Shown here: positions 5,279 through 22,621 of the stretch, piece after piece
Position numbering within the stretch: position 1 is the stretch's first letter
Layout of the letters: every line of letters begins with the position of its first letter
Translations under genes and position numbers: made by a program
Notes under the pieces: model-generated
What the model was told of the DNA's origin: nothing
The model's database searches: none
The model's input: only the letters and a program-made list of their open reading frames with translations
Assembly (NCBI GenBank): GCA_028691315.1
Contig: JAQUZN010000001.1
Location: forward strand, 121,238 to 145,237
Length of the DNA stretch: 24,000 nucleotides
Source of the DNA: Candidatus Izemoplasmatales bacterium
GTDB lineage: Bacteria > Bacillota_I > Bacilli_A > Izemoplasmatales > Hujiaoplasmataceae
Direction: 5' to 3'

Positions 5279-8143
5279 CTAAACTTGTCCAGTTTTCTTA
5301 ATGGACAGATTTCCATTTTCTCTTGCAAAGAACTTAAAGTTTCCGAGAGTAACAGCGTTTGTTTGCACTTCTTCTACTTCTAATCGATTCTGTTTAAATG
5401 TCGCTAAAGTTCCAGTTTCATTACTAAAACTAATGTTTGCATCTTCTGTATCATCTCCACTAAAGATTCTTAGTTTAACTGGACTAGCATTATTTCCCAA
5501 TAAGATAGCACCGTTATAAAGATTAATATATTGGAATAAATCACTGATCTCAATATCCATTGGATTACCTTCGCTATCTAATCCTTTAATAATAGTACGA
5601 TTTCTCCATTCTGTGCTAAGACCATCAATAGAAGCTTGCACTGATACAATCTTCTCATCAACTTCTGACATAATTTTTGATAAAGAATCATTCTCTGCAA
5701 TCATGCCTTTCACATCTTCTTCTGTAAGAATCTTTGGTTGTTCTGTTTGGAACACAGCAGCCATTGCATCCTCAAAAATTTCAAATCGCATAGAAGTTGC
5801 TTCGATATAATCCCTCATAGAGTTATCATTTTCAAATTCATTAACCGTAAGATCTTCAGGTGCTGGTTGCCAATCTCGAATTTTAACCAAACTATTATAA
5901 AGACCCATATTAATCAGATTGAAAGTATCACCTTCTTGGAAATCTGTTGATTTAAATCCAATATACTTATATTCAATATTATCAAGTTGATCATAGACAA
6001 TATCATACATTCTTGTTGTCAGAGCAATATTCATGGATGCTATTCTTTTAACATGAGATAGATCTTCTGTCATTAAATATACATTAACAACCAAGGGATC
6101 ATTAGTGCTAGTCGAACCAAATGCTCTAAAACAGAATGAATATCGTCCCATAGCTGGAACTTCACTTAATGGAAGTCTAATGTATTGATTTTCTTCTGTT
6201 TGCTCTTCTTGCAACTCACCCTTTTTAAATTGTAGATAAGTGACTCTTTTAGCAACATCATCTACAGTCATTGCTTCTAAATTTTCTGGTAAGATTGTCA
6301 TCGTCCATGGAATCTCACCAAGTTCCCATAACATTGGTTTATTTACTTGATAATCACCACTGGTAAGAATCATGTTTCGAATACCGAAGGTATGATTAAA
6401 ATTGATGACATCGACATCATTAACACGAAGAGTCTCAGCATTGATTTCTACACGATCGGTATTGGCTTCTACTTTAAAGTTTCTTGAGTCAATTCCACCA
6501 CTAGGACTTAATACCAAATTATTAGATAGATTAATACCACTTTTTCCAATATAAACACTTGTATATCCATCATTTGGATCTTCCCAATAGATTTCATTCT
6601 CTCCGATATTCCAAGGACCAATTCTACCACCTTCAGTAGCAATCAAATAACCTTCGGTTGTTATTTGTACTGCACCATTGATCGATGTCATACCATTCAA
6701 TTTAATATTATCGCCAGTAAGAACAATATCTCTAGATATCAAACTTGCAAAGTTTTCTGTTAGCTCAAAGGACGTCTCATCAGTACCTGAGACTAACCAA
6801 GAAAATCTCTCAGCTGTTTGTGCAGCACTGCTGGAGATCTGTAGGGCATTGTTAGCTTCTTGACTAATAGCCGTTAAAGTACGCACGGTTTCATCCGCAG
6901 ACTCTCTATATTCATTATAAAAGTCAGAAATATATTTCTTTTCACCATCTATTGTTTCATAGTAAGTCGATCTTCGTAACTGCTCTAAACCATGCATAGT
7001 TTCATAACTAGTCTTAACAGCTTCTACGGCTATAATTTGATCTCCACTCACTTCATCTTCTAAATTTGTAATCGCTTGCCAACCCAAAGGGGAACCAGTC
7101 CATTTAGAATAAATATCTGTGGATGGCATATACCAAATATCCCCTATTCGTGGATCATTTGGTACTGTTTCTGATACAATCACATTTTTCCTATTTTGAA
7201 GAGTAATAGAATTACGATAAGTCGCAAGGTTATATCTCATTTCACAAGTGATCGTAGTAGATAAAGCAATACTAGATATAGGTAATGATAATGTATATCC
7301 ACTTGCATTTTGAACCCAGATACCATTCACATACCATCTAAAGGTTGCATCCTCATCCGTCAATTTATTTGAACCTTCATACGCAATAGCTTCTAGTGTA
7401 ATGGTAGATACAGTACGATTATCAAAGATAGTTCCTTCTGGAGAGAATATATTGAATGAGATTGACGTGTTAGTAGGTTCAAATATCATATTACTTAATG
7501 TAATGCTACCAGTAGCACTAATCGCAGCCCCTTCAGTATCCGTTCCATTATAAGCACAATAAAAAGTAGCATTTACAGTATCATTCATTTCATTAGCAGA
7601 TACCGTAACATTTTTGCCAGTATAATGCTTACCATTCCAAAATGTATCATAATCAGCATTCTTTGATTTTCTAGTCCATACCAAATCAGTAGCTTTTGCT
7701 GTAGAGGTAATGTCTTCACCTGTTTTTAATATTCTTGCCGTTAAGGTTTTAACATCACTTGGAGAAGCAAAAATAAAACCCTCTCCACTCATTACTTCAC
7801 AAGTATAATGAGCGTTTGCCGCTAACTTATCAAGCTCTGTTCTTATTTTCCTACTACTCCAAGAGGCTGTATCTTTAATAGTATTATCATCAATATCCGA
7901 AAATTTAGGAAATATAATATTTAATTTTTTCGATTTACTATCTTCATCTATTTCAATACTAGCATCCGGTGTAGCAGAGTCTCCTACTATCAGATCCCCT
8001 ATTTCTAATGACATGCTATTCTTCTCTATGCCATCTTCCATATGGTCTAATCGTTTCTTTGTAATTACAGAATCATCTTGTAATCTAGAAGGTAATGTTT
8101 TATCATAAGTCTTCCAGTTTTGTTTTGTATAATCATAAGACAT
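5279..8143 (-). CDS. large tail fibre / receptor-binding-like structural protein (954 aa)
   Basis: The N-terminus YTKQNWKTYDKTLPSRLQDDSVITKKRLDHMEDGIEKN has the TW...(I/V)T...LNxhExGI pattern typical of Firmicute phage fibre N-termini. It carries the TASWSSRKI block shared with the 1-841 ORF. Its TAG stop overlaps the SD of the next fibre gene. Confidence 0.7.
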   Translation of the reverse strand: MSYDYTKQNWKTYDKTLPSRLQDDSVITKKRLDHMEDGIEKNSMSLEIGDLIVGDSATPDASIEIDEDSKSKKLNIIFPKFSDIDDNTIKDTASWSSRKIRTELDKLAANAHYTCEVMSGEGFIFASPSDVKTLTARILKTGEDITSTAKATDLVWTRKSKNADYDTFWNGKHYTGKNVTVSANEMNDTVNATFYCAYNGTDTEGAAISATGSITLSNMIFEPTNTSISFNIFSPEGTIFDNRTVSTITLEAIAYEGSNKLTDEDATFRWYVNGIWVQNASGYTLSLPISSIALSTTITCEMRYNLATYRNSITLQNRKNVIVSETVPNDPRIGDIWYMPSTDIYSKWTGSPLGWQAITNLEDEVSGDQIIAVEAVKTSYETMHGLEQLRRSTYYETIDGEKKYISDFYNEYRESADETVRTLTAISQEANNALQISSSAAQTAERFSWLVSGTDETSFELTENFASLISRDIVLTGDNIKLNGMTSINGAVQITTEGYLIATEGGRIGPWNIGENEIYWEDPNDGYTSVYIGKSGINLSNNLVLSPSGGIDSRNFKVEANTDRVEINAETLRVNDVDVINFNHTFGIRNMILTSGDYQVNKPMLWELGEIPWTMTILPENLEAMTVDDVAKRVTYLQFKKGELQEEQTEENQYIRLPLSEVPAMGRYSFCFRAFGSTSTNDPLVVNVYLMTEDLSHVKRIASMNIALTTRMYDIVYDQLDNIEYKYIGFKSTDFQEGDTFNLINMGLYNSLVKIRDWQPAPEDLTVNEFENDNSMRDYIEATSMRFEIFEDAMAAVFQTEQPKILTEEDVKGMIAENDSLSKIMSEVDEKIVSVQASIDGLSTEWRNRTIIKGLDSEGNPMDIEISDLFQYINLYNGAILLGNNASPVKLRIFSGDDTEDANISFSNETGTLATFKQNRLEVEEVQTNAVTLGNFKFFARENGNLSIKKTGQV

Positions 8144-8283: not shown

Positions 8284-9168
8284 ATGAAAAAAGTGAATAT
8301 TATCACACCATCAAATGAAAAACTGCCATCAAATTTTGTGACTGCATGTAATCAATTACAGGAGGAATACAAATCTACTGAAGTAAAATTTAAAGCTTAT
8401 GTTTTGAAGAATCAAGATGTAGATGCTACTCAGACATTAAAAGATATTGCTAATGCAGATGTCATGATAATTGTTTCATCTATGTATTTTGGTGTAAGTA
8501 TTAATATGATATGCTCTATGATAAAAGATGTAAACCCATCTTTACATATCATCGTATGTGAATTATCAGAGAATGGAATGCCAAAGAATTTTACCGACAA
8601 GTTAATGGAAGTCCCAGTTGATTGTATACTTAGTAATCCAAAAGATATCAATATTATCAAGTATATTATCAACTATGGAATCAAAAAGAATAATGAGTCG
8701 ACCGATCAATTGTTGATACCATCAGAAAGACAAATTAACAAAGAATCATCCGTTAAAGAAACGGAAATAAAAACCGTAACAGAGATGACGGATGATGAGA
8801 TCAAGAAATTAATTTCTCAGATATTTAGAGAAATTGGTTGTAGTGTAAATCTTATTGGATTTGCCTATGCTGTTGATTCCATATTTTATCTTGTGAGGTA
8901 TGGGCATGACAATAAAATTGTAACTACAGTGTATGGGTATGCAGCAAAAGAAGCAACAAACAAAGGTAGGGAAACAACAGCCAATAGAGTAGAACGAGCA
9001 ATTCGTCATATGATTGAGAATCTTTTTAATAATGGGAAATCAAACTTCGTGTTATCGAATAAGTTCAACCCAGACAAAGGAAAACCAACCAATACGGAAT
9101 TCTTGAAGTATATTGCTGATAGTATTATCAATGGCTGGTATCAAGAAATATTAGATGAAAATAAATAA
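8284..9168 (+). CDS. Spo0A-like transcription factor: Spo0A C-terminal DNA-binding domain fused to a degenerate (pseudo)receiver domain
   Basis: The C-terminal ~115 aa align block-for-block with remembered B. subtilis Spo0A-C: ISQIFREIGCSVNLIGFAY vs ITSIIHEIGVPAHIKGYLY; ANRVERAIRHMIENLF vs ASRVERAIRHAIEVAW; KGKPTNTEFLKYIADSI vs KAKPTNSEFIAMVADKL. The N-terminal ~130 aa have a receiver-like beta/alpha periodicity but lack the acidic pocket and the phospho-acceptor Asp. Confidence 0.85.
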   Translation: MKKVNIITPSNEKLPSNFVTACNQLQEEYKSTEVKFKAYVLKNQDVDATQTLKDIANADVMIIVSSMYFGVSINMICSMIKDVNPSLHIIVCELSENGMPKNFTDKLMEVPVDCILSNPKDINIIKYIINYGIKKNNESTDQLLIPSERQINKESSVKETEIKTVTEMTDDEIKKLISQIFREIGCSVNLIGFAYAVDSIFYLVRYGHDNKIVTTVYGYAAKEATNKGRETTANRVERAIRHMIENLFNNGKSNFVLSNKFNPDKGKPTNTEFLKYIADSIINGWYQEILDENK

Positions 9169-9170
9169 AA

Positions 9171-9210
9171 GAAAAGACCCTAGTGAAGAATATTTCACTA
9201 GGGTTATTTT
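9171..9210. terminator. bidirectional terminator between convergent genes
   Basis: 11-bp stem ACCCTAGTGAA (9177-9187) / TTCACTAGGGT (9194-9204) with a 6-nt loop. It is flanked by an A-run upstream and TATTTTATT downstream, so a T-tract is present on both strands. Confidence 0.7.
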
Positions 9211-9211
9211 A

Positions 9212-9805
9212 TTAAGAAATTCTTTTTCTTTTTTGTTCCAATCGTCGATCAATTGCTTTTTGAAACTCCGGTTTCAAATAATGATAGACATCTTTTACAT
9301 TATAAAATCTACCATATTTCGACATATGATTATCCTTCAAGTTTTTATTGATATATCCATCAAACTCAGACGAATAATCTGCAACGTATAATATATTATG
9401 TACTCCATCCCAATAAATCGACGAATCATAAGCCACGAAAGGTTTGTTAAATAATCGAATATAATCAATACCCGAGAATTTTACATTTTTAATATTGATT
9501 CTTGCTTCTTGTCTAGCTTCTAATACAACTTGTTGATGATTTGCTACATCACGTTCTACAGATCCACCTGGAACTCTGAAATAATTCTTTTCTCTACATA
9601 GAAAGACTTGACCTTTATGATTAAAGATCAAAACTTCTACACGGTTTCTAAATATTTTACCTGGAAACTTAGATATGGTTACCAAGCTATTCCAATTATT
9701 ATTACGATCAAAATATCCTTTATGTAACAATGCAGAGTGCATCGTTATCTTAGGACTAGCCGGTGTTCGCATCGCTCTTTTCTCCTTCTTTCTTTTTTCA
9801 CTCAT
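9212..9805 (-). CDS. Nudix-fold hydrolase-like protein with partly degenerate Nudix box
   Basis: GGSVERDVANHQQVVLEARQEARI aligns to the Nudix box GGxxExGExxxxAAxRExxEExGU. E5, E17 and E21 are kept, but R16 is L, E20 is Q and G23 is R. Start is uncertain: AAGGAGA abuts the ATG at 9814, and the ATG at 9805 has about 10 nt spacing. Confidence 0.5.
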   Translation of the reverse strand: MSEKRKKEKRAMRTPASPKITMHSALLHKGYFDRNNNWNSLVTISKFPGKIFRNRVEVLIFNHKGQVFLCREKNYFRVPGGSVERDVANHQQVVLEARQEARINIKNVKFSGIDYIRLFNKPFVAYDSSIYWDGVHNILYVADYSSEFDGYINKNLKDNHMSKYGRFYNVKDVYHYLKPEFQKAIDRRLEQKRKRIS

Positions 9806-9880: not shown

Positions 9881-9924
9881 AAAAAAGAAAAAGGTCAGCC
9901 TAGGCAGTTTCATCCACCTAGGCT
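9881..9924 (-). terminator. rho-independent terminator after the 9935-11374 gene
   Basis: 8-bp stem AGCCTAGG (9897-9904) / CCTAGGCT (9917-9924). On the minus strand it is followed by GACCTTTTTCTTTTTT. Confidence 0.6.
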
Positions 9925-9934
9925 TGTTTTTGTT

Positions 9935-11374
9935 TTATATAATCGTCGGTATGATCCGCTTAAGTGTTTCTAATCGTTCTACCATCAATGTGTTCATCCT
10001 ATTTGCGCTGATAGGATATGCAGGTAATATCGTACCTGGGCGATATGGTGAATCAATTAGAGACTGTATGGTTTGATCAACTTCTTCGATTATATAATTG
10101 TTTACATTATTTCTTGGTTTTATTAATTGGTATTCATACATAATATCTCTTTGAATCTTCTCTAACTCTTTTGTGAAGGGTGTAACCGATTCAAATCTAA
10201 CATCATCCTTAAATGATGATTGTTCATGCTTATGATCAATTAAATTAATATAAAACTCATGGATTGAACAAGAAGATTCAATTAACTGATAATAGTTTTC
10301 AATTTGATCTTCTGATTCTATGAATAAATACGTATATAATAAATCATATGTCTCACAAACAATAGTACGCTGTAATCGTATAGTGGTACCATCTTTAGCA
10401 AATGCAAAGATATCATTCAATCCATCTTTATGAACAATAATCACATCTTCTTTTGGATTATTTGTGAATGTATTTTTCTTCATACAACCACTAATATAGA
10501 TATTATTGCCAGTGCCAACCATAGCTCCATTAGCAGTATTTTCAATGATATTTTTTGGCTCATGGATCTTTTCTTTCCATGAGTATTCATAAGTCTGATC
10601 TTTTTTCACAAAGATATCAATCGTTCCTATGAAACGGGTCTTACCGGCTTTCATATCAGTATATACATAATAAATTCCAGATATAAGACGACCTTTTGAC
10701 AATAATGCAGAAGGTAAATCCGGATAATATTGTTCTTCATCCCAACAAGTGTTTTCTGGTTCTTTATAATCTCTCTCTAAATGATAAGAAGAAAAATGTT
10801 CATAAGAATCTTTTTCTCCTTCTACGGATTCTATTTGATATTCAACCTCTTCTTTTACTAATAAATAAGCAGTATGATAATTATCTGGGCTTAATTTACC
10901 ACCCATTGGTTTAATTACTTTATTAACCATTGGACAATATTTTTCTGGCTTTTCTTCTCCAAAACAGAAACATATACTTTCCTTTGGATCATTTTTAAAC
11001 TTCTCTATTTCTTTTTTTGGTATAATTAGTTTTCTACCAATTTCTTTTTCTACCATACTTCTAGCTTGATTAAATATCTTCATTCGTTTATTAGTATCTT
11101 CTAATATAATACATACTTCATTCATAGCTTCTGGAAGATATTTTAATATACGATTATTCGGATCTATTTGTATATTACCCATTTGAAACTCTTCTAATTT
11201 ATGGATGATATTATTTGCTAATTTTTCTTCATTATTTTCATTCACATAATTAAAAAACTTAATAGCTGATTCTACTTCATTTTTATCACGTAATGGATAT
11301 TTTCTAAGTTCCGGAAGCCCATAATAGGATTCCTCCGTTACTTCTTTTTGTTTATTCTCATAGAATATAGGCAT
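9935..11374 (-). CDS. hypothetical protein (479 aa)
   Basis: Long ORF. AAAGGGGT lies 7 nt before the ATG at 11374. No family recognised. Confidence 0.75.
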   Translation of the reverse strand: MPIFYENKQKEVTEESYYGLPELRKYPLRDKNEVESAIKFFNYVNENNEEKLANNIIHKLEEFQMGNIQIDPNNRILKYLPEAMNEVCIILEDTNKRMKIFNQARSMVEKEIGRKLIIPKKEIEKFKNDPKESICFCFGEEKPEKYCPMVNKVIKPMGGKLSPDNYHTAYLLVKEEVEYQIESVEGEKDSYEHFSSYHLERDYKEPENTCWDEEQYYPDLPSALLSKGRLISGIYYVYTDMKAGKTRFIGTIDIFVKKDQTYEYSWKEKIHEPKNIIENTANGAMVGTGNNIYISGCMKKNTFTNNPKEDVIIVHKDGLNDIFAFAKDGTTIRLQRTIVCETYDLLYTYLFIESEDQIENYYQLIESSCSIHEFYINLIDHKHEQSSFKDDVRFESVTPFTKELEKIQRDIMYEYQLIKPRNNVNNYIIEEVDQTIQSLIDSPYRPGTILPAYPISANRMNTLMVERLETLKRIIPTII

Positions 11375-11390
11375 CTCAATACCCCTTTCT

Positions 11391-11436
11391 TAATACAAAA
11401 ATAAAAACATAGGAGATATATTACTCCTATGTTTTT
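11391..11436 (-). terminator. rho-independent terminator after prfH
   Basis: 13-bp stem AAAAACATAGGAG (11403-11415) / CTCCTATGTTTTT (11424-11436). On the minus strand it is followed by ATTTTTGTATT. Confidence 0.7.
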
Positions 11437-11451
11437 ACCCTCTTTTGACGT

Positions 11452-12042
11452 TCATTTCTTAACCAATTTAAATTCTGGTCCTTCATATACTCTTACAGGA
11501 TTTCCTCGAATTAAATCTTGGTGTGCTCTCCAAGCTTCTTCTTTTTGTTGAGATTGTGCATCATTCTCAATCTCTTTCAAGATAGATTTTAATCGTTCTG
11601 TTACTTCTTTTTTGTTTAAGTATTGACTTCTCTCTGAAGTGGAGACTAAGCTAATTCCAGTAGGTCTATGAATTAAACGAACTCCACTTTCTACTTTGTT
11701 TACATGCTGACCGCCTTTACCTCCACTTCGAAAAGATTCATACTTAATATCGTTCTCATTAAATTCACAAACAGCATTATGGCTAGAGATTCTACTCACA
11801 TCAATGAACCAATTCTTTCGTTTATGGTGAGGACGGATGGGACTTTTACAAATCCATTGAATAGAACCTTCTAGCCATGACAAATCATGTTTTGTTTGAA
11901 ACATAACAGAATCTTGTTTTAAAGCAGCCATATCCGATAGAACTTCAATATCTTCAAATTCATCTTCTAACGAATGAAGCAGAAGTGTAACTGCTAATTT
12001 ACATTCTGTTGGTCCATGACCTGAACTAATCTGTAGTATCAT
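11452..12042 (-). CDS. prfH: peptide chain release factor H (PrfH-type GGQ protein lacking codon-recognition domains)
   Basis: MILQISSGHGPTEC, IQWICKSPIRPHHKRKNWF and RSGGKGGQHVNKVESGVRL closely parallel E. coli PrfH as I remember it (MILLQLSSAQGPEEC, IQWICPSPYRPHHGRKNWF, GGQHVNK). GGQ codons are at 11707-11715. At 196 aa it is far shorter than RF1/RF2. It overlaps rtcB by 4 nt. Confidence 0.9.
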   Translation of the reverse strand: MILQISSGHGPTECKLAVTLLLHSLEDEFEDIEVLSDMAALKQDSVMFQTKHDLSWLEGSIQWICKSPIRPHHKRKNWFIDVSRISSHNAVCEFNENDIKYESFRSGGKGGQHVNKVESGVRLIHRPTGISLVSTSERSQYLNKKEVTERLKSILKEIENDAQSQQKEEAWRAHQDLIRGNPVRVYEGPEFKLVKK

Positions 12043-13184
12043 TCTTTTCCTCCGGCTTTAAAATTATAGATTGGTTTGATTATCTTTGCAATACGAACGG
12101 TATCTTGAATTGCTTCTTGAATATCTTTCAAATCACGATAAGCGAATGGAGCTTCATCTAATGTATCTTTACCAATACTTGGTGAATGAATACCTTTCAT
12201 GATAGATTTATATTCAGATACTGTATGAGAATTCTTTACTTCTTCTCTTTTTATAATTCTTCCTGAGCCATGAGGAGCCGAACAATTCCAATCTTCATTT
12301 CCTAATCCCACACCCAAAATAATACCATCTTTAGAATTAACTGGAATTGCTATATATTGTCCTTCTCTTGCTGAGATTGCACCTTTTCTTAAAATATAAT
12401 CATTCCCGATGAAGTTATGAGGACAATCCATATGCTTACCAGCATTCCATTTCATCTTTTTTACTATTTTACCAATAATTCTTAATCGATTAAAATGTGC
12501 AAATTCCTCTGCTATAAAAGAATCATTTAGATAATCATTTCTTAACCATCCTTCTAAATAAGTCATTTCATAAGGCACGTCAATTCCTTTTCTTTTTAAT
12601 TCTTTCTGTCCTTCGTTTAAATAATAAGATGTGATATCAGAACCAAAACTACGACTTCCACTATGAACAGATAGGAAGAGCTTTCCATCATCGTCTTGAT
12701 CGATTTCAATGAAATGATTTCCTCCACCAAGAGTTCCAACACTTCGTTCTATGATATCTTTTCTGGCGTTTTTCATTCGAATATTATTAAATTCAATTTT
12801 ATCAAAAAAGGTCATAGGCGAATCTTCAATAGAATTATGAATCTTCATACCACATGGAATATTTTCTCGAATAACTGTATCGAGTTTCTGAAATTCAATT
12901 CTCTTTGTATTAATTGGAACTATCGTAACCCCACAACCAATATCATTTCCTAAAAGATTAGGAAGAATGCGATCTGTGAGTGTCATGGATAAACCAATAG
13001 GTCCAACCTTTCCAGGGTGCACATCTGGCATGACTCTTATTTTACTATCTTTTGATACTTCATTATCACAGATCATTTTGATCTGGGCTTCAGCATATTG
13101 TTCAATTTTCTGGTCTTGCTCTTTTGTTGTAAATACCTTTGCTGATCCATATTTTCCTTTAATATAATAATTATAATTTCCCAT
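12039..13184 (-). CDS. rtcB: RtcB-family 3'-phosphate/5'-hydroxyl RNA ligase
   Basis: RtcB signature blocks are present: VMPDVHPGK, GNDIGCGV, GTLGGGNHFIEID, SVHSGSRSFG, CPHNF and NCSAPHGSGR. AAGGAGA lies 5 nt before the ATG at 13184. Confidence 0.92.
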   Translation of the reverse strand: MGNYNYYIKGKYGSAKVFTTKEQDQKIEQYAEAQIKMICDNEVSKDSKIRVMPDVHPGKVGPIGLSMTLTDRILPNLLGNDIGCGVTIVPINTKRIEFQKLDTVIRENIPCGMKIHNSIEDSPMTFFDKIEFNNIRMKNARKDIIERSVGTLGGGNHFIEIDQDDDGKLFLSVHSGSRSFGSDITSYYLNEGQKELKRKGIDVPYEMTYLEGWLRNDYLNDSFIAEEFAHFNRLRIIGKIVKKMKWNAGKHMDCPHNFIGNDYILRKGAISAREGQYIAIPVNSKDGIILGVGLGNEDWNCSAPHGSGRIIKREEVKNSHTVSEYKSIMKGIHSPSIGKDTLDEAPFAYRDLKDIQEAIQDTVRIAKIIKPIYNFKAGGKE

Positions 13185-13204: not shown

Positions 13205-13747
13205 TTATTTCTTTCCTTTTGGTCTAGCATCCAATTTTTTATAATTTGGCATAGGAAAATCGATCGGTAATGGTTCACCATGATCAAACTCAATATGTGG
13301 TGATTTCATAGTATACATCATTGTTTCTTGAAGAGACATATTACATATCTCTTTATTGAAATAATAAATGAGATATTGATAATTAGTACCCTTGAATACA
13401 TGACCACCATCTTCTTGTAAAACTTTTGTTTTACATTGAGATTTTAAAAAACTTGCTAATTCATCTCTTTGATTAGTTGCTATCATTTTACTAGAACTTG
13501 ATTTGTTAAAATGATTGATATAATCTACCTCGACTAATGAAATTCTTATCGCTTTTGAATCCGAAGAGGTGGAAAGGCCTTCATTAAATTTAAAATAACG
13601 ATTAGTCTTTTTATAAACTTGCGTACCCGATCGATTTATGCTTAGATTGAACGTGACGCCTTGTCTATTAATTAAATTTACAACTTCATTCAAATACTCT
13701 TTATTATTAACTGGATTAAAAATGTGTAAATTATCAAATACTGCCAT
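13205..13747 (-). CDS. hypothetical protein, single copy of the PxP(N/D)Y-terminated ~150-aa paralogous domain
   Basis: It starts MAVFDN, with the same 18-nt 5' end (ATGGCAGTATTTGATAAT) as the 15618 gene. It contains AIRISLVEVDY...NQRDELASFL and the C-terminal FPMPNYKKL. SD is GAGAGGGGA. No terminator separates it from rtcB. Confidence 0.75.
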   Translation of the reverse strand: MAVFDNLHIFNPVNNKEYLNEVVNLINRQGVTFNLSINRSGTQVYKKTNRYFKFNEGLSTSSDSKAIRISLVEVDYINHFNKSSSSKMIATNQRDELASFLKSQCKTKVLQEDGGHVFKGTNYQYLIYYFNKEICNMSLQETMMYTMKSPHIEFDHGEPLPIDFPMPNYKKLDARPKGKK

Positions 13748-13768
13748 TTTTTAGTCCCCTCTCTCTTT

Positions 13769-15115
13769 CTATTCTGGCAATTTCATATAATTTGGTATTG
13801 GTGAATTTTTGTCTAACTTTTCAATATTCAATCTACCTTTCGCTATTAATGTATTGATCATATTGATCATATAACGCCAACAATAAAAATCAGAATTAGC
13901 TCCCAATAACCTCATCAATTCTTTTTTCTGATCATTGTTTAACCTAATTTGCTCTCTTCTATCATCATTACAATCTACATATATCGGTTTATTGATATTG
14001 ATTCTAGCGTGTAATTTTTTATTCTTGCTATAATCAATATCGGTAAAAATGAAATATAAATCATCTTTTTTAATATTCCGATTTAAACATAGATGAAGAT
14101 GGTTTCCTGTCAATTCCCCCCCAAGAAAAGTGAATAGATTATGGTAGTGTTCTCCTAACTCTCGTGATAACCCAAATAAATTAAACATCTCATAATCGGC
14201 CACATAGTATTCTTCCGGACCATCTGGAAGTAACTCGTAATTTGGTTGTTTTGGTATCTTAACCCCAGGTTTTTCCATATCATCGCCTAGTAAACCAGTC
14301 TCATATAAATAATGTCTATATAACCATTCATAATTTGTCATGCCATTGAAGTGGATTAAAGAGCTTAAAAAATTATTCAATTCAACCTTTTCGTCTTTAG
14401 TTAGATATAAAAACTCTTTAGTCTCATCTGGAGTGTGAACATAATAAGGATTCATAAAACTTATTCTTGCAAGTTTAGTTTTAAATTCAAATCTTTCATC
14501 TCTTATATTAAAATATCTCTCTTTGATTGCATGGTTCCATTGTATCTTTATTGATATATGGTAATTTAAAAAATCAGAAATCATATCGTCTGACCAATTA
14601 TAATTCTCAGTCAATTGTCTTGAATCATCATATTCAAAAACATGATCGATATCATGTTCGTATAAATAAAAACCACGAGAACCAATATTGATATCCTTAT
14701 AATCTGGTGGTCTTGTTACTTTATACGGTTTATAACCCATGTCAATAAGACCTTTATTAAAATAATCAAAAATCAAATTCCAGAAAATATCATTATTTAC
14801 CAATTCAATCCATTTTGCTAACTGCTTCTTATTTAATTTAAAATTTCGAGTTCTGAACATATGATTCCAAGGAACTTCATTCATATAACTTGGATAGTTT
14901 AAATGAATTCTAGAACTTCTAGTTGCATGTTTAGGATCCTCGTTATTATACGCTATAATATAAATCAAATCCTGCCTGTTCTTTGGTGGATTGATACACA
15001 GTGACATATGAAGATGTTTATATGAGTATACAATCTTTTCTTCAGTTTTAATTTCTCCTAATATCAATTCTTTTCTTCTCATAAATCTTTTACATTTATT
15101 CATCATTCCTCCCAC
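13769..15115 (-). CDS. hypothetical protein made of three tandem copies of the same ~150-aa domain
   Basis: Modules end at RPPDYKDI (aa 136-143), KQPNYELL (289-296) and PIPNYMKL (439-446). Each has an (A/S)R(I)x(L/F)xxPxY...L(T/N)xx(Q/E)Kx(E)L core. The maximal ORF starts at GTG 15115, but GGGAGGA sits just before ATG 15106/15103, so the true start is probably one of those. Confidence 0.75.
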   Translation of the reverse strand: MGGMMNKCKRFMRRKELILGEIKTEEKIVYSYKHLHMSLCINPPKNRQDLIYIIAYNNEDPKHATRSSRIHLNYPSYMNEVPWNHMFRTRNFKLNKKQLAKWIELVNNDIFWNLIFDYFNKGLIDMGYKPYKVTRPPDYKDINIGSRGFYLYEHDIDHVFEYDDSRQLTENYNWSDDMISDFLNYHISIKIQWNHAIKERYFNIRDERFEFKTKLARISFMNPYYVHTPDETKEFLYLTKDEKVELNNFLSSLIHFNGMTNYEWLYRHYLYETGLLGDDMEKPGVKIPKQPNYELLPDGPEEYYVADYEMFNLFGLSRELGEHYHNLFTFLGGELTGNHLHLCLNRNIKKDDLYFIFTDIDYSKNKKLHARININKPIYVDCNDDRREQIRLNNDQKKELMRLLGANSDFYCWRYMINMINTLIAKGRLNIEKLDKNSPIPNYMKLPE

Positions 15116-15618
15116 TACAGTAATGCATAATCTGGCATCCGGTTTTTCATCTTTCTTAATTTCTTTTTATTTTTTTCATTATCCGTAAACTTGATATGCT
15201 CTTTTATAATATACATCCATAGTGATGCAAATCGATCTCCATATTTCGGGCAATAACCCTTCAATGTTTTTACCAACCATTCTTTCTGTTCAACGGTCAA
15301 TTCTAAATGGGAGAATATATCATCACTAGGTCTTTTCTTATATCTCGGTTTTGACATTTTTACCCTACAGCATTTTGTGCCCTCTAACATTTTACAACTA
15401 TTTATAATTTTAATATAAAAATCGTCATCGTAAGTTTGTTCAAAATGAACTAATATAGATAAATCCATTTCTTCATCTCTTACAACAAATTCCATTAAAT
15501 TGTGAGTCTCACCCAATATAACAGAGCAACTCATAGCATTTTCAATATTTTTTATAGAATCTTCTTCAATAAAAATATCTTTCTCTAAATCTTTCTTTCC
15601 ATTATCAAATACTGCCAT
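15115..15618 (-). CDS. hypothetical protein, single copy of the same paralogous domain; first gene of the operon
   Basis: It starts MAVFDN, contains CCRVKMSKPRY...LTVEQKEWLVKTL and ends RMPDYALL. SD is GAAAGAGAGG. Its stop overlaps the downstream maximal ORF by 1 nt. Confidence 0.75.
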   Translation of the reverse strand: MAVFDNGKKDLEKDIFIEEDSIKNIENAMSCSVILGETHNLMEFVVRDEEMDLSILVHFEQTYDDDFYIKIINSCKMLEGTKCCRVKMSKPRYKKRPSDDIFSHLELTVEQKEWLVKTLKGYCPKYGDRFASLWMYIIKEHIKFTDNEKNKKKLRKMKNRMPDYALL

Positions 15619-15656
15619 TATAATTTCCTCTCTTTCATTTTTAAATTTAGAATATG

Positions 15657-15693
15657 TAATAGTGAGTATAGATCTTTCCTATACTCACTATTA
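15657..15693 (-). terminator. 15-bp perfect hairpin after the 394-aa gene (terminator and/or 5'-UTR structure of the downstream operon)
   Basis: TAATAGTGAGTATAG (15657-15671) pairs with CTATACTCACTATTA (15679-15693) around a 7-nt loop. The downstream minus-strand tract CATATTCTAAATTT is only moderately T-rich. Confidence 0.5.
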
Positions 15694-15700
15694 TAATATA
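15692..15700 (-). promoter_or_regulatory. TATATTATA element upstream of the paralog/rtcB/prfH operon
   Basis: Exact 9-mer on the minus strand, immediately 5' of the 15-bp hairpin and about 75-80 nt upstream of the ATG at 15618. Confidence 0.3.
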
Positions 15701-15714
15701 TCATCATTATTCTT

Positions 15715-16899
15715 TTATAATATATATTTAGCAAAATATTCTATATCACTTTCATTAATATAAATATTACTAATATTATCGTTCTCTTCTATTTTAATTC
15801 CTAAAATTCCTGATTTACCCACTTCTAATTCAGCAGGTATTTCTATACTTCCTACATAAATAGAAGAATGAATAATTTGATTAATGAAAGCAATAAAATG
15901 ACGCAATTCATCAATATCAGTTTCTTTCGTGATCTTATAGATTGCAAATTTCCATTCATTATCATCTGTATGAATATCTATCATTCTACAGAATAACATT
16001 CTATTTTGTTGTCTTAACAATAACAATTTCTTTCTTGCCATTTCAGCAGTCTCTTTATAATCAAGTATATTATTCACTTCATTGATTCTTGTAATATGAA
16101 TGGTTCTTACCGTTTGGTGGGGAGCTTCCATTAGATTCTCTTTCAACTCCAACATCAATTGAATCATTTGGTCAAATCGATTATCCGTTAAACGGATATA
16201 ATTATATTGTTTTTGGTCTTTAATTGCTTTCTCTTTTGCTAATTGTTTTTTTCGATATTCTTCCATGTTTCTTGTATTCGGATTATCTCCACCATCTTTA
16301 ATATCAAATACCAGATTATATGGTTCATAATAATAATCAGTAATCCATTGATGTGTCTTACCATTAAATTGATAATCAATCACTGGTCCAGGCGCAGTTA
16401 AATCCGATGATTTTATATGAAAGAAATTATCCATAAAAGATAAAAATGCTTTTTCATAGCTTCCTACATAAGAAAGAACTCCACCATCTTGAAACTTATA
16501 TTTCCCCGATATGGATCGATTCTGTAACATCTTATTTTGAAACTCAGGATCGTTTAAAAAATCCTCTTTTGTTTTGCCATGTTTCTTATATAATCGATCT
16601 GCCGTTTGTTTGATATATGCTTCTTTACAAGTCTTTCTATTACAGATTCTATCGTACCGAGCTTTTGATTCATCCCATGGAGTTTCTCTTCTACATATCA
16701 CACAACTACCATTTGTTTTTTTATTAATTAAATTAAATATCACTCTTGTAGAAGAATAACCTTCAGGAATCATATCTTCATGAGTACGATCTACATGCGT
16801 AATTAGTTTATTTCTTTCTAATCTTTTCTCACAATAAGGACACTTATATTTCTTTGTATATTTCGGTTGGATTTTTATAATCTCGTTACCATTCGTCAT
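15715..16899 (-). CDS. zinc-finger protein with putative PD-(D/E)xK nuclease core
   Basis: It has an N-terminal CPYC...H(x4)H motif and a second Cys cluster (CVIC...C...C). The central SYEKAFLSFMD...YQFNGKTHQWITDYYYEPYNLVFDIKDGG fits the SxxE..FL..D / D...(D/E)xK layout of restriction-endonuclease-fold enzymes. The C-terminal ~130 aa are unassigned. Confidence 0.45.
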   Translation of the reverse strand: MTNGNEIIKIQPKYTKKYKCPYCEKRLERNKLITHVDRTHEDMIPEGYSSTRVIFNLINKKTNGSCVICRRETPWDESKARYDRICNRKTCKEAYIKQTADRLYKKHGKTKEDFLNDPEFQNKMLQNRSISGKYKFQDGGVLSYVGSYEKAFLSFMDNFFHIKSSDLTAPGPVIDYQFNGKTHQWITDYYYEPYNLVFDIKDGGDNPNTRNMEEYRKKQLAKEKAIKDQKQYNYIRLTDNRFDQMIQLMLELKENLMEAPHQTVRTIHITRINEVNNILDYKETAEMARKKLLLLRQQNRMLFCRMIDIHTDDNEWKFAIYKITKETDIDELRHFIAFINQIIHSSIYVGSIEIPAELEVGKSGILGIKIEENDNISNIYINESDIEYFAKYIL

Positions 16900-17279: not shown

Positions 17280-17663
17280 ATGCCAGTTCAAAAAGAACAT
17301 GTATTTTCATTAAATGAATTTAGAGAATCAAAAGTATTAGAAGGAAAAGAAGCCATTGCAACATTATTGGTTCGTATTATCCTTCTACAACCAGGAACCA
17401 ATCCTGATCATCCAGAAATGGGTGTGGGGTTGGTTGAGAATTATCGATATTCGCAAAAAGATAATATTGATAATCTTAAAAGAGAAATACAGAGTCAAAT
17501 TCAAACATATTTACCTAGATTACAAGCCACGAATGTTAATGTATTACTAAATCCAGATAATACATTAACGATCGGTATTCAGATCGATGATGTGATCTAT
17601 CAATTTGAAACATCAGAACTTACAGATAACGATATAAGGTTTAATGATATAAGTGAACAATAA
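17280..17663 (+). CDS. baseplate wedge protein, gp25/GPW-like
   Basis: AAAGGAGA SD. EAIATLLVRIILLQPGTNPDHPEMGVGLVENYRY...NLKREIQSQIQTYLPRLQATNVNVLLNPDNTLTIGIQIDDV aligns along its length with T4 gp25 (SIKNSLLGIITTRKGSRPFDPEFGCDL...VERNIESAVRNYEPRIDKLAVNVIP...YTLIVEIRFSV). Confidence 0.65.
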   Translation: MPVQKEHVFSLNEFRESKVLEGKEAIATLLVRIILLQPGTNPDHPEMGVGLVENYRYSQKDNIDNLKREIQSQIQTYLPRLQATNVNVLLNPDNTLTIGIQIDDVIYQFETSELTDNDIRFNDISEQ

Positions 17664-20502: not shown

Positions 20503-21839
20503 TTGGAATCATTGAATTTAAGAAATCTTATGTTAGAATATATTGATGATAATTACAATAGTGATGTTATCATGCTAAACGAAGCCGGTAAAGGAACAAG
20601 TCTATTAGAAGTTGAATTATTGGATGATGAAGACTTTATTAAGAAGAACCAAATAGAACCAATCACAAATCCAATCTTCTTTGTAAGAGAAGGAATTCCT
20701 TCTACCGATGGTTTATTATCAAATCAAATTTTTGGTATCACAAAAGAAGAACGATCTAACACATTTGGTTATATCGATCTTGGTGATACTTACATGCATC
20801 CTCTTTGTTATAAAGTATGGAGTCGAATGGATTCTCGTATTAAAGATATTGCTCATGGAACAAAAAAGTTTATCATCGAGAATGGTGATTTTGTTGAGAG
20901 TGAGAATGGTGAGAATGGTATGGAGTTCTTACGAAAGAATATCAATAACATTAAAATCCGTTCTACCGAATCTCGACAACGTGATAAAAAGATTAAATTC
21001 TTAATGAGTAATCGAAATAAAATGTTTATTAAAAAATTTATGGTTATCCCAGCATACTATCGAGATGTGGAAACTAATTCTGGTGGTAAAGTTGGGGTAG
21101 GTTCTTTAAATAAGCATTATGCATCTTTGATAATCTCTGCTCGATCATTAAAAGAAACTCAAGAGTATGGTCTCAACGTATCTGAAGCTGTGCGTGGGAG
21201 AGTGCAAGAAACAATTCTCGACATATATAACATACTTAGCGGAACTTCGGACGACCCCGATGCCGGAATCGGCTTATCTTCAAAAAGAGGGTACGTAAAG
21301 AGTGCTGTTATGGGGAAAACAGCAGATTATGGATCTCGACTGATTATTTCTGCACCTGAGTTAAAAGTAGAGGCTTTAGATGATCTAATGGTAGATATGG
21401 ATTATTGTGCATTGCCATTAGCATCAGCTATTACAAACTTCTTTCCCTTTATCGTATTCCATGTTAAACGTTTCTTTGAGAATAACTTTCATGGAAATGA
21501 ACAATATTCTACGATCAATAAAAAAACAGGTAAAACAGAATTCGTAACGATTAAAGACCCATTAGAAACTTTCTCTGATGAGAGAATACGAAAAGAGATG
21601 AAACGATTTGTTAAAGGTTACTCTGATCGTTTTTCTCCTATAGAGATTCCAACAACTAATGGCGATATGGTAAGAGCAAGATTTACCGGAAAAGAAGTAT
21701 CCGCTGAAGATATGAAGAATGGAAATGTATCCGGTTCTTCTGCTTTAATACAAAGAGATTTAACTTGGTGTGATGTATTCTATATGGCGGCCACAGAAGC
21801 TGTCAGAGATAAGCATGTTATTATTACCCGTTTTCCGAT
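20503..21839 (+). CDS. multisubunit RNA polymerase beta-prime-like subunit (N-terminal fragment type), exon 1
   Basis: TTG start preceded by GAAAGGGGTGA. Beta-prime blocks are present: STDGLLSNQIFG (cf. ERDGLFCARIFGP), FGYIDLGDTYMHP (cf. MGHIELAAPVAHIW), VIPAYYRDV (cf. VLPVLPPDLRP), MGKTADYGSRLIISAPEL (cf. LGKRVDYSGRSVI) and VIITRFP (cf. VLLNRAPTLH). The exon ends at T21839, the predicted 5' splice site. The track's tail KEEIQVSARPVMV is intron read-through. Confidence 0.85.
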
Positions 21840-22215
21840 AAAAGAAGAAATTCAAGTGTCGGCTAGGCCAGTAATGGTCTAGAAATAACTTTTCTAATTG
21901 CTGGAAATCCTTAAAGCCTCAGAGACCACAACGTAATTCATAAGAATAAGCGTGAGGGTTATCGAAAGATAGAAAAAACGTCTGAGGATGATCTATGGTG
22001 ATAGTAAGCCTAAGGATCGTATAAAATAGGTGATCAGCAGCTAAGCATCTTTATAAAAAGATGAAAGTTCAACGACTATCCGAAAGGAGTAGGGTTCAAG
22101 TGAATTCGAAATGGAAAGCATCCTTATGGGATGAAGATATAGTCTAGTATCCTAATGAAAGTTAGGGAAGTTCATAAGAGAACTGCGTAGCTTAACGACC
22201 TACGTGAATACCACG
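21840..22215 (+). ncRNA. group I self-splicing intron (ORF-less, 376 nt) in the RNAP beta-prime gene
   Basis: The classical core elements appear in order: P AATTGCTGGAAA (21896-21907), Q ATCAGCAGC (22033-22041), R GTTCAACGACTATCC (22067-22081) and S AAGATATAGTC (22134-22144). GCTG/CAGC forms P4 and GACTAT/ATAGTC forms P7. In P1, exon CCGAU (21835-21839) pairs with GUCGG (21858-21862), giving a U:G wobble at the splice site. There is a 7-bp P2 hairpin (21863-21882) and GAAA tetraloop hairpins (TATCGAAAGATA, CCGAAAGG). The intron ends in G22215 (omega-G). Confidence 0.9.
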
Positions 22216-22621
22216 GGACAGTTGTTTTAATAACATGGTTGCTAAAGTAAGAGTCTCTACTGTCAAATATATGGAAAAGGTTTATGTGAATGGAACCTAT
22301 TATCCGTTTTACCCAAAGATTAGACAGAAAGATATTAGTTCTAACACGAGTGATAAATTTATTGATACATTGATGATTAGTAATCTTATGCTCAAAGGAG
22401 CCGGTGGTGATTATGATGGAGATCAAGTATCGGTAAAAGCTGCATGGACACAAGAAGCCAATATTGAATTGGATAAGTTTATCAAATCAGTTTCAAATTA
22501 TATTGATCTTGGTGGTGTCAATATTCGAGTCTCAACAAATGAAGCAGTACAAGCTTTATTTAGTATGACAAAGATATTAAATGAAGATAAAGCTAAGATT
22601 CAAAAACCTATTTTTACATAA
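22216..22621 (+). CDS. RNAP beta-prime-like subunit, exon 2 (carries the catalytic DYDGD loop)
   Basis: Joining AT(21838-21839) to G(22216) restores the frame: ...VIITRFP-M-DSCFNNMVAKVRV..., parallel to bacterial NRAPTLHRLGIQAFEPVLI. GGDYDGDQVSVKA (Asp triad 22409-22423) corresponds to NADFDGDQMAVHV. The ATG at 22235 in the track is internal. Confidence 0.85.

Follow-up and report, generated by a model that had tools for sequence, protein, structure and literature searches.

Gene order and module array

The 24,000-nucleotide (nt) stretch analyzed here (positions 121,238 to 145,237 of contig JAQUZN010000001.1, hereafter the window) is phage DNA with a G+C content of about 31%. It carries three consecutive minus-strand genes, A, B and C, built from five copies of one module of about 150 amino acids (aa) and followed directly by genes for the RNA ligase RtcB and release factor H (PrfH). 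Along the minus strand the order was an endonuclease-like gene, a 16-bp hairpin, A, B, C, rtcB, prfH, a strong terminator, an unknown gene of 479 aa and a NUDIX gene. The features of the block, all on the minus strand, were as follows.

15715-16899, minus strand: endonuclease-like gene (phrog_15137, 1e-44)
15657-15693, minus strand: 16-bp hairpin between the endonuclease-like gene and gene A (z -3.8; 0 of 200 shuffles folded equally well)
15601-15619, minus strand: 19-nt stretch (A followed by ATGGCAGTATTTGATAAT) at the start of gene A, identical to 13730-13748
15115-15618, minus strand: gene A, 167 aa, one module, 'CCR(I/V)K...YKK' subfamily
13769-15106, minus strand: gene B, 444-445 aa from ATG, three modules
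14690-15106, minus strand: gene B module 1, core SSRIHLNYPSY, end RPPDYKDI
14228-14689, minus strand: gene B module 2, core LARISFMNPYY, end KQPNYELL
13769-14227 including the stop codon, minus strand: gene B module 3, core HARININKPIY, end PIPNYMKLPE, the module modeled by AlphaFold
13730-13748, minus strand: second copy of the 19-nt stretch, at the start of gene C
13205-13747, minus strand: gene C, 180 aa, one module, 'YFK..N / ARIS / LP.D.PMP(D/N)Y' subfamily
12039-13184, minus strand: RtcB RNA ligase, 381 aa (Pfam PF01139, E 1.9e-50; phrog_1075, 3e-107)
11452-12042, minus strand: PrfH, 196 aa (RF-1 domain, 6e-24; GGQ motif present)
11390-11437, minus strand: intrinsic terminator 3' of prfH closing the five-gene block, a 19-bp stem followed by UUUUUAUUUUU

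A first-pass annotation of this DNA had reported three minus-strand open reading frames of 167, 448 and 180 aa. All three exist, although gene B more likely starts at an ATG (15106 or 15103) than at the GTG at 15115, as favored by the public gene call of 444 aa. The 1+3+1 layout of one repeating module proposed there was borne out, with the motifs listed for the module found in all five copies. Division of the gene B product after RPPDYKDI and KQPNYELL gave modules of 142, 154 and 152 aa that could be aligned with the products of A (167 aa) and C (180 aa).

Pairwise BLAST matches between modules were weak (E 0.002-0.03). In a leave-one-out test, in which a hidden Markov model (HMM) of four modules scored the fifth, scores of 26.3, 19.2, 27.8, 37.2 and 15.4 bits were obtained, while the best of 2000 composition-matched shuffles per module reached 10.2-14.9 bits and none of the 2000 attained the real score. 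This test was decisive, and judged by profile alignment (15-37 bits versus at most 10-15 for shuffles) the five modules are related beyond chance, as had been claimed. A six-frame scan of the 24-kb window with the five-module HMM returned exactly these five copies and no sixth.

An uncatalogued domain family

An exhaustive HMMER search of 1.84 billion representative sequences with the five-module profile returned 424 proteins at E<=1e-3, 56 of them at E<=1e-10. With an improved HMM built from 67 sequences, 139 single-domain proteins (about 130-190 aa), nine two-domain and three three-domain proteins and one PIF1 helicase fusion were recorded, and P0075 (1176 aa, seven 'stretches') was lost and rejected as a repeat-driven false positive. 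On these profile matches the domain is a real, uncatalogued family of at least 400 sequence clusters, with members from uncultured large gut and rumen phages and from variable chromosomal islands of gut bacteria. Word-indexed homology search was insensitive for this family: gene B retrieved only itself and the 67-sequence profile only five proteins.

Scans of the products of A, B and C and 62 homologues against Pfam-A, PHROGs v4, NCBIfam 20 and PADLOC 2 gave no family matched by more than one of the 67 sequences, and the lone matches had E values of at least 4e-4 in Pfam, at least 7.9e-5 in PHROGs, 0.005 in NCBIfam and at least 0.001 in PADLOC. When three family alignments (A2, A3 and A4) were used as search profiles against PDB sequences, the best E values were 0.38, 0.16 and 0.068, respectively, all to unrelated proteins; the match at E 0.38, to a Vip2 ADP-ribosyltransferase, covers one lysine-rich helix and was discarded as spurious. 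No informative names were found in public sources among sampled family members, and tblastn with gene B, the family consensus and a bacterial member gave no match in 50,697 phage records and 72,556 plasmids.

An AlphaFold model of gene B module 3 built with 67 homologues had a predicted local distance difference test (pLDDT) score of 83, compared with 35 when only the five modules served as alignment, and a Foldseek search with the pLDDT 83 model found no match in PDB or BFVD. The description of the domain as unrecognised was upheld in the curated-library and PDB-sequence searches. The curated libraries do not yet contain the family, and its fold may be new as well.

The predicted fold is alpha/beta, with an N-terminal helix, a four-stranded sheet, two helices and a C-terminal tail. 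In the model the strands of the sheet hold the conserved YFK.(Y)N and A.K.ARIS..P.Y, the two helices correspond to W.LN..EK..L...L and T.W...I..FN, and the C-terminal P.P(D/N)Y..L tail was placed with high confidence and would pack on the domain. Conservation across the family comprised Y-F-K-x-(Y/F)-(N/D), A-(T/S)-K-x-A-R-I-S and P-x-Y followed by H and, in the C-terminal half, W-x-L-N-x-x-E-K-x-x-L-x-x-x-L, T-x-W, I, N and L-P-(M/I)-P-(D/N)-Y-x-x-L. Individual residues reached 95% (Y), 73% (K), 97% (R, the arginine of A-R-I-S), 95% (Y) and 88% (W), and apart from this one arginine most of the conserved positions were aromatic or hydrophobic. This pattern, together with isoelectric points (pI) of the domain ranging from 4.7 to 9.4, is compatible with a scaffold bearing variable surfaces.

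The modules could alternatively be a divergent and possibly largely inactivated enzyme, such as a PD-(D/E)XK-like nuclease, whose paralogs have drifted. The predicted secondary-structure order of a helix, four strands and helices would suit such an origin, as would a glutamate in the N-terminal helix at 66%, a proline at position 36 in 52% of domains, and a consensus N-P-D at position 36 followed by a lysine-containing strand. Module B3 also had a weak PADLOC match to a Type II restriction enzyme model (E 0.0054); one such match among 67 members is at chance level for the number of scans. The conservation profile contained no near-invariant acidic residue or catalytic set and Foldseek gave no nuclease fold, and we consider a degenerate enzyme improbable. 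A GIY-YIG reading was rejected, as the predicted secondary structure was wrong and there was no sequence or fold support.

Paralog age and array plasticity in syntenic relatives

The closest relatives of gene A elsewhere were at 34-38% identity and belong to a 'CCRIK...YKK' subfamily from other metagenomes, while the closest relative of gene C was P0009 at 35%. The A and C proteins are barely alignable to each other, and since each is nearer to proteins of other phages (38% and 35%) than to the other, the paralogs are, by sequence comparison, old and fast-diverging, in line with the divergence noted in the first-pass annotation.

Three contigs (L002, L151 and L039) were syntenic with the window and held an array in the same slot 3' of the endonuclease-like gene. 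The shared order consisted of RNA polymerase, p725 and gp25-like genes and, divergently, the endonuclease-like gene, the array, a homologue of the 479-aa protein (p479), NUDIX, a Spo0A C-terminal domain (Spo0A_C) gene and the tail fibre. In the window the five-gene block was flanked by the following genes.

17280-17663: gp25-like baseplate gene
5279-8143: tail-fibre-like genes

Array content differed at this slot. L039 had three modules arranged 1+2 (a frameshifted single-domain gene and a two-domain gene), L002 from pig gut had four single-domain genes, the window had five modules and L151 had six single-domain genes. The syntenic contigs indicate that in this phage lineage the array is a fixed accessory slot just downstream of the endonuclease-like gene, and these related phages, with 3, 4, 5 or 6 modules at a common locus, amount to a natural experimental series. 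Array proteins were among the most diverged shared genes between the window and L002/L151, with 35-37% identity compared to 43% for the tail fibre, 54% for NUDIX, 65% for the gp25-like protein, 68% for the endonuclease-like protein and 72% for RNA polymerase.

In L002 an identical 30-nt element, gtttcatatctataattaattttaaggagg, was located ahead of family genes 1 and 3 (8607-8636 and 9576-9605). This element may be a repeated promoter and ribosome-binding-site cassette, in which case the array in that phage would not be one simple operon.

Association of the array with rtcB-prfH

RtcB matched PF01139 at 172.8 bits (cut-off 27) over profile positions 14-425 of 426; it adjoins the array and is not a member of the module family. 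PrfH matched the solved PrfH chains 9mor (E 1e-33) and 7sa4 (2e-32) from end to end, and RF2 at 2.5e-15. These matches, with the RF-1 domain, mark both proteins as genuine, as first annotated. To our knowledge the PrfH-RtcB pair has so far been studied in bacteria only, and the window extends this ribosome-repair pair to jumbo phages. RtcB has already been noted in jumbo phages (PMC7824862), and no paper containing both 'PrfH' and 'jumbo phage' was found in the literature. RtcB2-PrfH rescues and religates ribosomes cut by colicin-E3-type rRNases (PMC9304027, PMC9223846, PMC13166195). As in the two-gene rtcB2-prfH operon of E. coli (PMC9304027, PMC9223846, PMC1586002), the stop and start codons overlap and the GGQ motif is intact, whereas the window adds three upstream genes with five modules. 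Carriage of the pair by a phage implies that host ribotoxins which cut 16S rRNA matter for anti-phage defense in the gut.

The first-pass annotation had described the array as attached to the repair pair, possibly as its specificity or accessory factor. Neither rtcB nor prfH was found in L002, L151 or L039, all three of which keep the array, and in L002 and L151 a gene of 127-128 aa occupied the position of the window's rtcB-prfH. A fourth relative, L049, had rtcB and prfH upstream of the endonuclease-like gene and no family member within 12.6 kb. Because the array occurred without rtcB-prfH in three relatives and rtcB-prfH without the array in the fourth, the gene contents indicate that the region is an accessory hot spot in which the two vary independently. 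Within its group only the window phage had rtcB-prfH next to the array. In L049 (3887-6591) rtcB and prfH were split by two unknown genes (179 and 162 aa) followed by an AAA-like gene of 398 aa; this separation is unusual, as the pair normally overlaps.

A search from the PrfH side yielded 22 IMG/VR loci on about 20 distinct contigs, with the locus L047 also retrieved as L052. L047 was the only one of these to carry the family, in the order large terminase-like gene, rtcB, prfH, a 151-aa family gene and a 135-aa family gene, the first gene being so assigned from a reading of its sequence. In L048, L050 and L051, which were syntenic with L047, an unrelated 126-aa gene filled the slot of the family genes. 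The L047 family genes were not close relatives of the window's modules, so the adjacency in L047 arose independently, and a mobile cassette of family and rtcB-prfH common to the two phages was rejected on the same ground. None of 80 metagenomic PrfH loci (74 with RtcB, 44 at least 5 kb long) had the family even at E<=1, and overall about 99 of 100 other rtcB-prfH loci examined were without family genes. Conversely, among about 38 family loci found independently of rtcB and prfH, one (L037) had rtcB within 8 kb, about 6 kb away.

The scan of the family HMM against rtcB/prfH loci thus did not find a conserved neighborhood, with adjacency limited to the window and L047. The idea of an attached accessory factor is not supported by L002, L039, L151, L049 and the 80 PrfH loci, and we conclude from gene content that the rtcB-prfH system does not include the family. 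The adjacency in the window appears to be a chance feature of this phage and not a stable partnership, and location in the same putative operon, within an accessory hot spot of a phage, is a poor indicator of functional partnership. Outside the window the family does neighbor RNA-repair genes in L047, a second independent adjacency, and otherwise rarely; the two independent adjacencies in low-GC large phages may reflect a facultative link or simply co-location in accessory regions.

A dedicated partnership, in which the modules would be cofactors of the ligase or release factor, specificity factors or ribotoxin inhibitors within one anti-ribotoxin operon, is nonetheless distinctly unlikely. 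In its favor, the five genes are tightly packed with hairpins at both ends, RtcB2-PrfH is known to act against colicin-E3-type rRNA cleavage (PMC9304027, PMC9223846), and the different gene order in L047, an unrelated phage, represents an independent juxtaposition. Against these stand the arrays without the pair and the pair without an array among the relatives, the unrelated gene in the contigs syntenic with L047, and the counts of 0 of 80 PrfH loci with the family and 1 of about 38 family loci with rtcB within 8 kb. Archease, an activator of RtcB that is often encoded beside rtcB, is likewise a small alpha/beta protein (about 140 aa) encoded next to the ligase gene. The family differs in occurring mostly without rtcB, and an archease assignment was rejected as no match was found in Pfam, PDB sequences or Foldseek.

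Shared 5' stretch, gene spacing and transcription

The identical 18-nt 5' ends of genes A and C previously noted are real and in fact extend to 19 nt, as the identity runs one base further upstream. The 18-mer was present exactly twice against 0.08 expected by chance. The 19-nt stretch encodes MAVFDN, its flanks are unrelated and the A and C proteins are only about 20% identical. Possible explanations for the identity are gene conversion, a common site of translational control or a substrate for recombination. MAVFDN as a family-wide N-terminal motif was rejected, as genes A and C alone start in this way.

Gene spacing, ribosome-binding sites and terminator-free gaps were as the first-pass annotation described. 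About 8-11 nt separated the stop codon of A from the ATG of B, with a GGAGGA overlapping the stop, the gaps from B to C and from C to rtcB were 21 and 20 nt, and rtcB and prfH overlapped by 4 nt. No terminator-like site was found on the minus strand inside the block from A to prfH, and the hairpin and U-run after prfH (11402-11437) had a folding energy of -28.9 kcal/mol (z -4.1). The hairpin ahead of gene A probably terminates the upstream gene or serves as a 5' untranslated region element, and a TATATTATAATA motif overlaps its 5' side. Because the gaps are at most 21 nt, no internal terminator is present and the block lies between two hairpins, a single operon from A to prfH, as proposed earlier, is plausible from sequence alone.

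A TATATTAT(A)-like motif recurred between genes, upstream of 960-2582, 5279-8143 and 8284-9168 and also at 15689-15700, just upstream of the hairpin preceding gene A, and its recurrence in intergenic regions makes it a candidate phage promoter. A further copy, TATATTATAAAAG, was located within gene A (about 15205), approximately 95 nt before B, and could be an internal promoter.

Genomic contexts of the family

In other large phages the family usually occurred in tandem pairs (L003, L004, L044, L150, L038 and L047). The L003 pair was located between a Fic fragment and an intein-containing gyrB-like topoisomerase gene, L004 had the family directly 3' of a ResIII/DEAD helicase gene, and in L041 it lay two genes downstream of a gene for a 1751-aa SNF2 helicase. 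In L044 the family followed tail-fibre-like genes, upstream of radical-SAM genes; L038 had modules arranged 1+3, and the L150 pair was at a contig end.

Bacterial species-representative genomes contributed 30 loci, most of them in rabbit-gut metagenome-assembled genomes (MAGs) labeled Akkermansia, with Succinivibrionaceae, Fibrobacter, Oscillospiraceae and Gastranaerophilales (Melainabacteria) as other labels. The setting of these loci was chromosomal, in islands close to leuA, pth, asd and aminotransferase genes. Neighbors included Type I hsdS/hsdR, a methylase with a UvrD-PD-(D/E)XK helicase-nuclease, a methylase with ResIII and an IS1595 transposase, RmuC, Schlafen/AlbA_2-HATPase proteins and SbcCD, and in at least 12 loci the family directly followed one to three ankyrin-repeat genes. 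No signal peptides were evident by eye in the family proteins of 15 bacterial loci. In the Akkermansia-labeled MAG contigs L019-L031, co-oriented strings of ankyrin, ankyrin, family and DUF6567 genes recurred together with other small unknown families, and these may represent a multi-copy island or element. Two PIF1 helicases carried the domain at their C-terminus (P0044, 634 aa, and L013, 698 aa).

These contexts bear on a structural or morphogenetic role, for which the gp25-like and tail-fibre-like genes flanking the block (17280-17663 and 5279-8143) and the position of the family after tail-fibre-like genes in L044 could be cited. Such a role is very improbable in view of the copy number of 3-6 among close relatives, the bacterial islands beside housekeeping genes, the PIF1 fusions, and immediate neighbors that were endonuclease-like, NUDIX and RNA-repair genes.

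The main rival to the reading favored below is a nucleic-acid-binding or recognition module that aids helicases, topoisomerases or nucleases, for example by reading a structure or modification of DNA or RNA, with the paralogs representing specificities. The C-terminal PIF1 fusions (P0044, L013), the adjoining helicase (L004), topoisomerase (L003) and endonuclease-like genes (window, L002, L039, L151), the copies near the giant SNF2 gene (L041) and the family-wide conserved aromatic and basic residues are all consistent with it. Both PIF1 fusions, however, come from the same MAG group and may be a single event, and helicase or nuclease neighbors would be expected anyway in defense islands and phage early regions. 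No similarity to a known nucleic-acid-binding family or fold was detected and many members are acidic (pI down to 4.7), leaving this role tentative and somewhat doubtful.

Modules as putative binding scaffolds in phage-host conflict

Our preferred reading, held with a probability of roughly 40%, is that the modules are fast-evolving binding scaffolds in phage-host conflict, comparable to arrays of immunity or inhibitor genes, and that in this phage they are probably expressed together with RtcB and PrfH. They would be non-enzymatic binding proteins that share one scaffold, with the variable N-terminus and loops of each paralog binding and neutralizing a different variant of a host effector, and DNA- or RNA-targeting defense enzymes would be the likeliest targets. 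Expression of the modules and RtcB-PrfH from one promoter upstream of gene A would place genes that block the attacker beside genes that repair the damage, and the modules would act without need of RtcB or PrfH. The large family, old paralogs, plastic copy number, fast divergence, tandem pairs and variable islands speak for this reading. Tandem arrays of fast-evolving accessory paralogs are a known phenomenon in phages, and the connection to RNA repair is mostly positional.

The analogy to immunity or inhibitor arrays drawn in the first-pass annotation stays the most plausible reading and is drawn from genomic context. Several observations weigh against it. No toxin or defined defense system was consistently adjacent. 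Several residues, polar or aromatic (Y, K, N, K, R, Y, H, W, N, E/K), were conserved from phages to Verrucomicrobia-labeled MAGs, which would also fit one conserved ligand such as nucleic acid instead of many different protein targets, and the PIF1-helicase fusions suit a nucleic-acid role better than an inhibitor role. The adjacency to rtcB-prfH in L047 also leaves room for a functional link.

Among known systems, a close likeness is to the immunity-domain arrays of polymorphic toxins of the SUKH/SMI1-KNR4 superfamily, reportedly described by Zhang, Iyer and Aravind in 2011. The resemblance lies in an alpha/beta domain of about 150 aa without a catalytic signature, in tandem genes, fused repeats and rapid divergence, and in occurrence in bacterial conflict islands with recruitment by DNA viruses. 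The family differs in having no Pfam immunity or Foldseek match, and the analogy is functional only; no toxin gene was seen next to the family among annotated neighbors at the loci examined. Membership in SUKH or another immunity family was rejected, as no SMI1_KNR4, SUKH or Imm sequence or fold support was obtained.

Phage anti-restriction and anti-defense proteins such as Ocr, ArdA and ArdB/KlcA are small and encoded in variable or early regions, and the bacterial copies of the family similarly adjoin restriction-modification genes. In contrast to these proteins, the family is not uniformly acidic (pI 4.7-9.4), shows no sequence similarity to them and was absent, at tblastn sensitivity, from the 72,556 plasmids and 50,697 deposited phage genomes. 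An ArdA/Ocr-type DNA mimic was rejected, given the wrong pI and no sequence or fold support.

A stronger version of the conflict reading, which we consider unlikely, would make the family a structurally unprecedented conflict class wired to RtcB-PrfH in at least two phage lineages as an anti-ribotoxin island, in which host RNases or ribotoxins would be inhibited by the modules, or the repair enzymes brought by them to damaged ribosomes, while RtcB-PrfH reverses the cleavage. If this were true, paralog diversity would track host toxin diversity. If the modules do serve in conflict, an uncatalogued family with an apparently new fold joins the genes of phage counter-defense and bacterial defense islands.

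Phage setting and other features of the window

The phage genes of the window were split multisubunit RNA polymerase, gp25-like baseplate, tail-fibre-like, Spo0A_C-domain and NUDIX genes. The RNA polymerase beta' piece had only about 31% identity to AR9/PBS1-type jumbo phages of Firmicutes (Listeria LPJP1, Staphylococcus S6 and Bacillus BpSp), which places this lineage, on protein similarity, as a distant relative of these phages. No DNA-level match of the region to deposited phages was found except for a 37-nt stretch of rtcB. The public record with gene B (P0001) is a 246-kb contig filed under a Candidatus Izemoplasmatales MAG. Its genes for a phage RNA polymerase, baseplate and tail fibre, together with its synteny to viral contigs from the gut, make it probable that a jumbo phage was wrongly binned into the MAG.

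A group I intron (Rfam RF00028, 88 bits, E 1e-21) at 21830-22167 on the plus strand split the RNA polymerase beta' gene into pieces at 20503-21882 and 22235-22621; in L002 and L151 the same two pieces were 19 nt apart, without the intron. A protein with a Spo0A C-terminal DNA-binding domain (Pfam 6e-17) was encoded at 8284-9168 on the plus strand and kept in L002 (14922-15698) and L151 (13450-14226), and its conservation suggests a host among the spore-forming Firmicutes, whose sporulation control the phage might disturb.

The 479-aa protein (9935-11374) had an N-terminal motif, YGLPELRKYPL.D...AI.FF, at aa 18-93, which also opened proteins of 478, 961 and 2317 aa 3' of the array in relatives (sites at L039 11334-11564, L038 2-148 and L002 11073-13955), so that this N-terminus appears to be a common head on variable bodies. 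Two more long, perfect terminator-like hairpins (9176-9205 and 9897-9924) flanked the NUDIX gene, the former being bidirectional and situated between the Spo0A_C and NUDIX genes.

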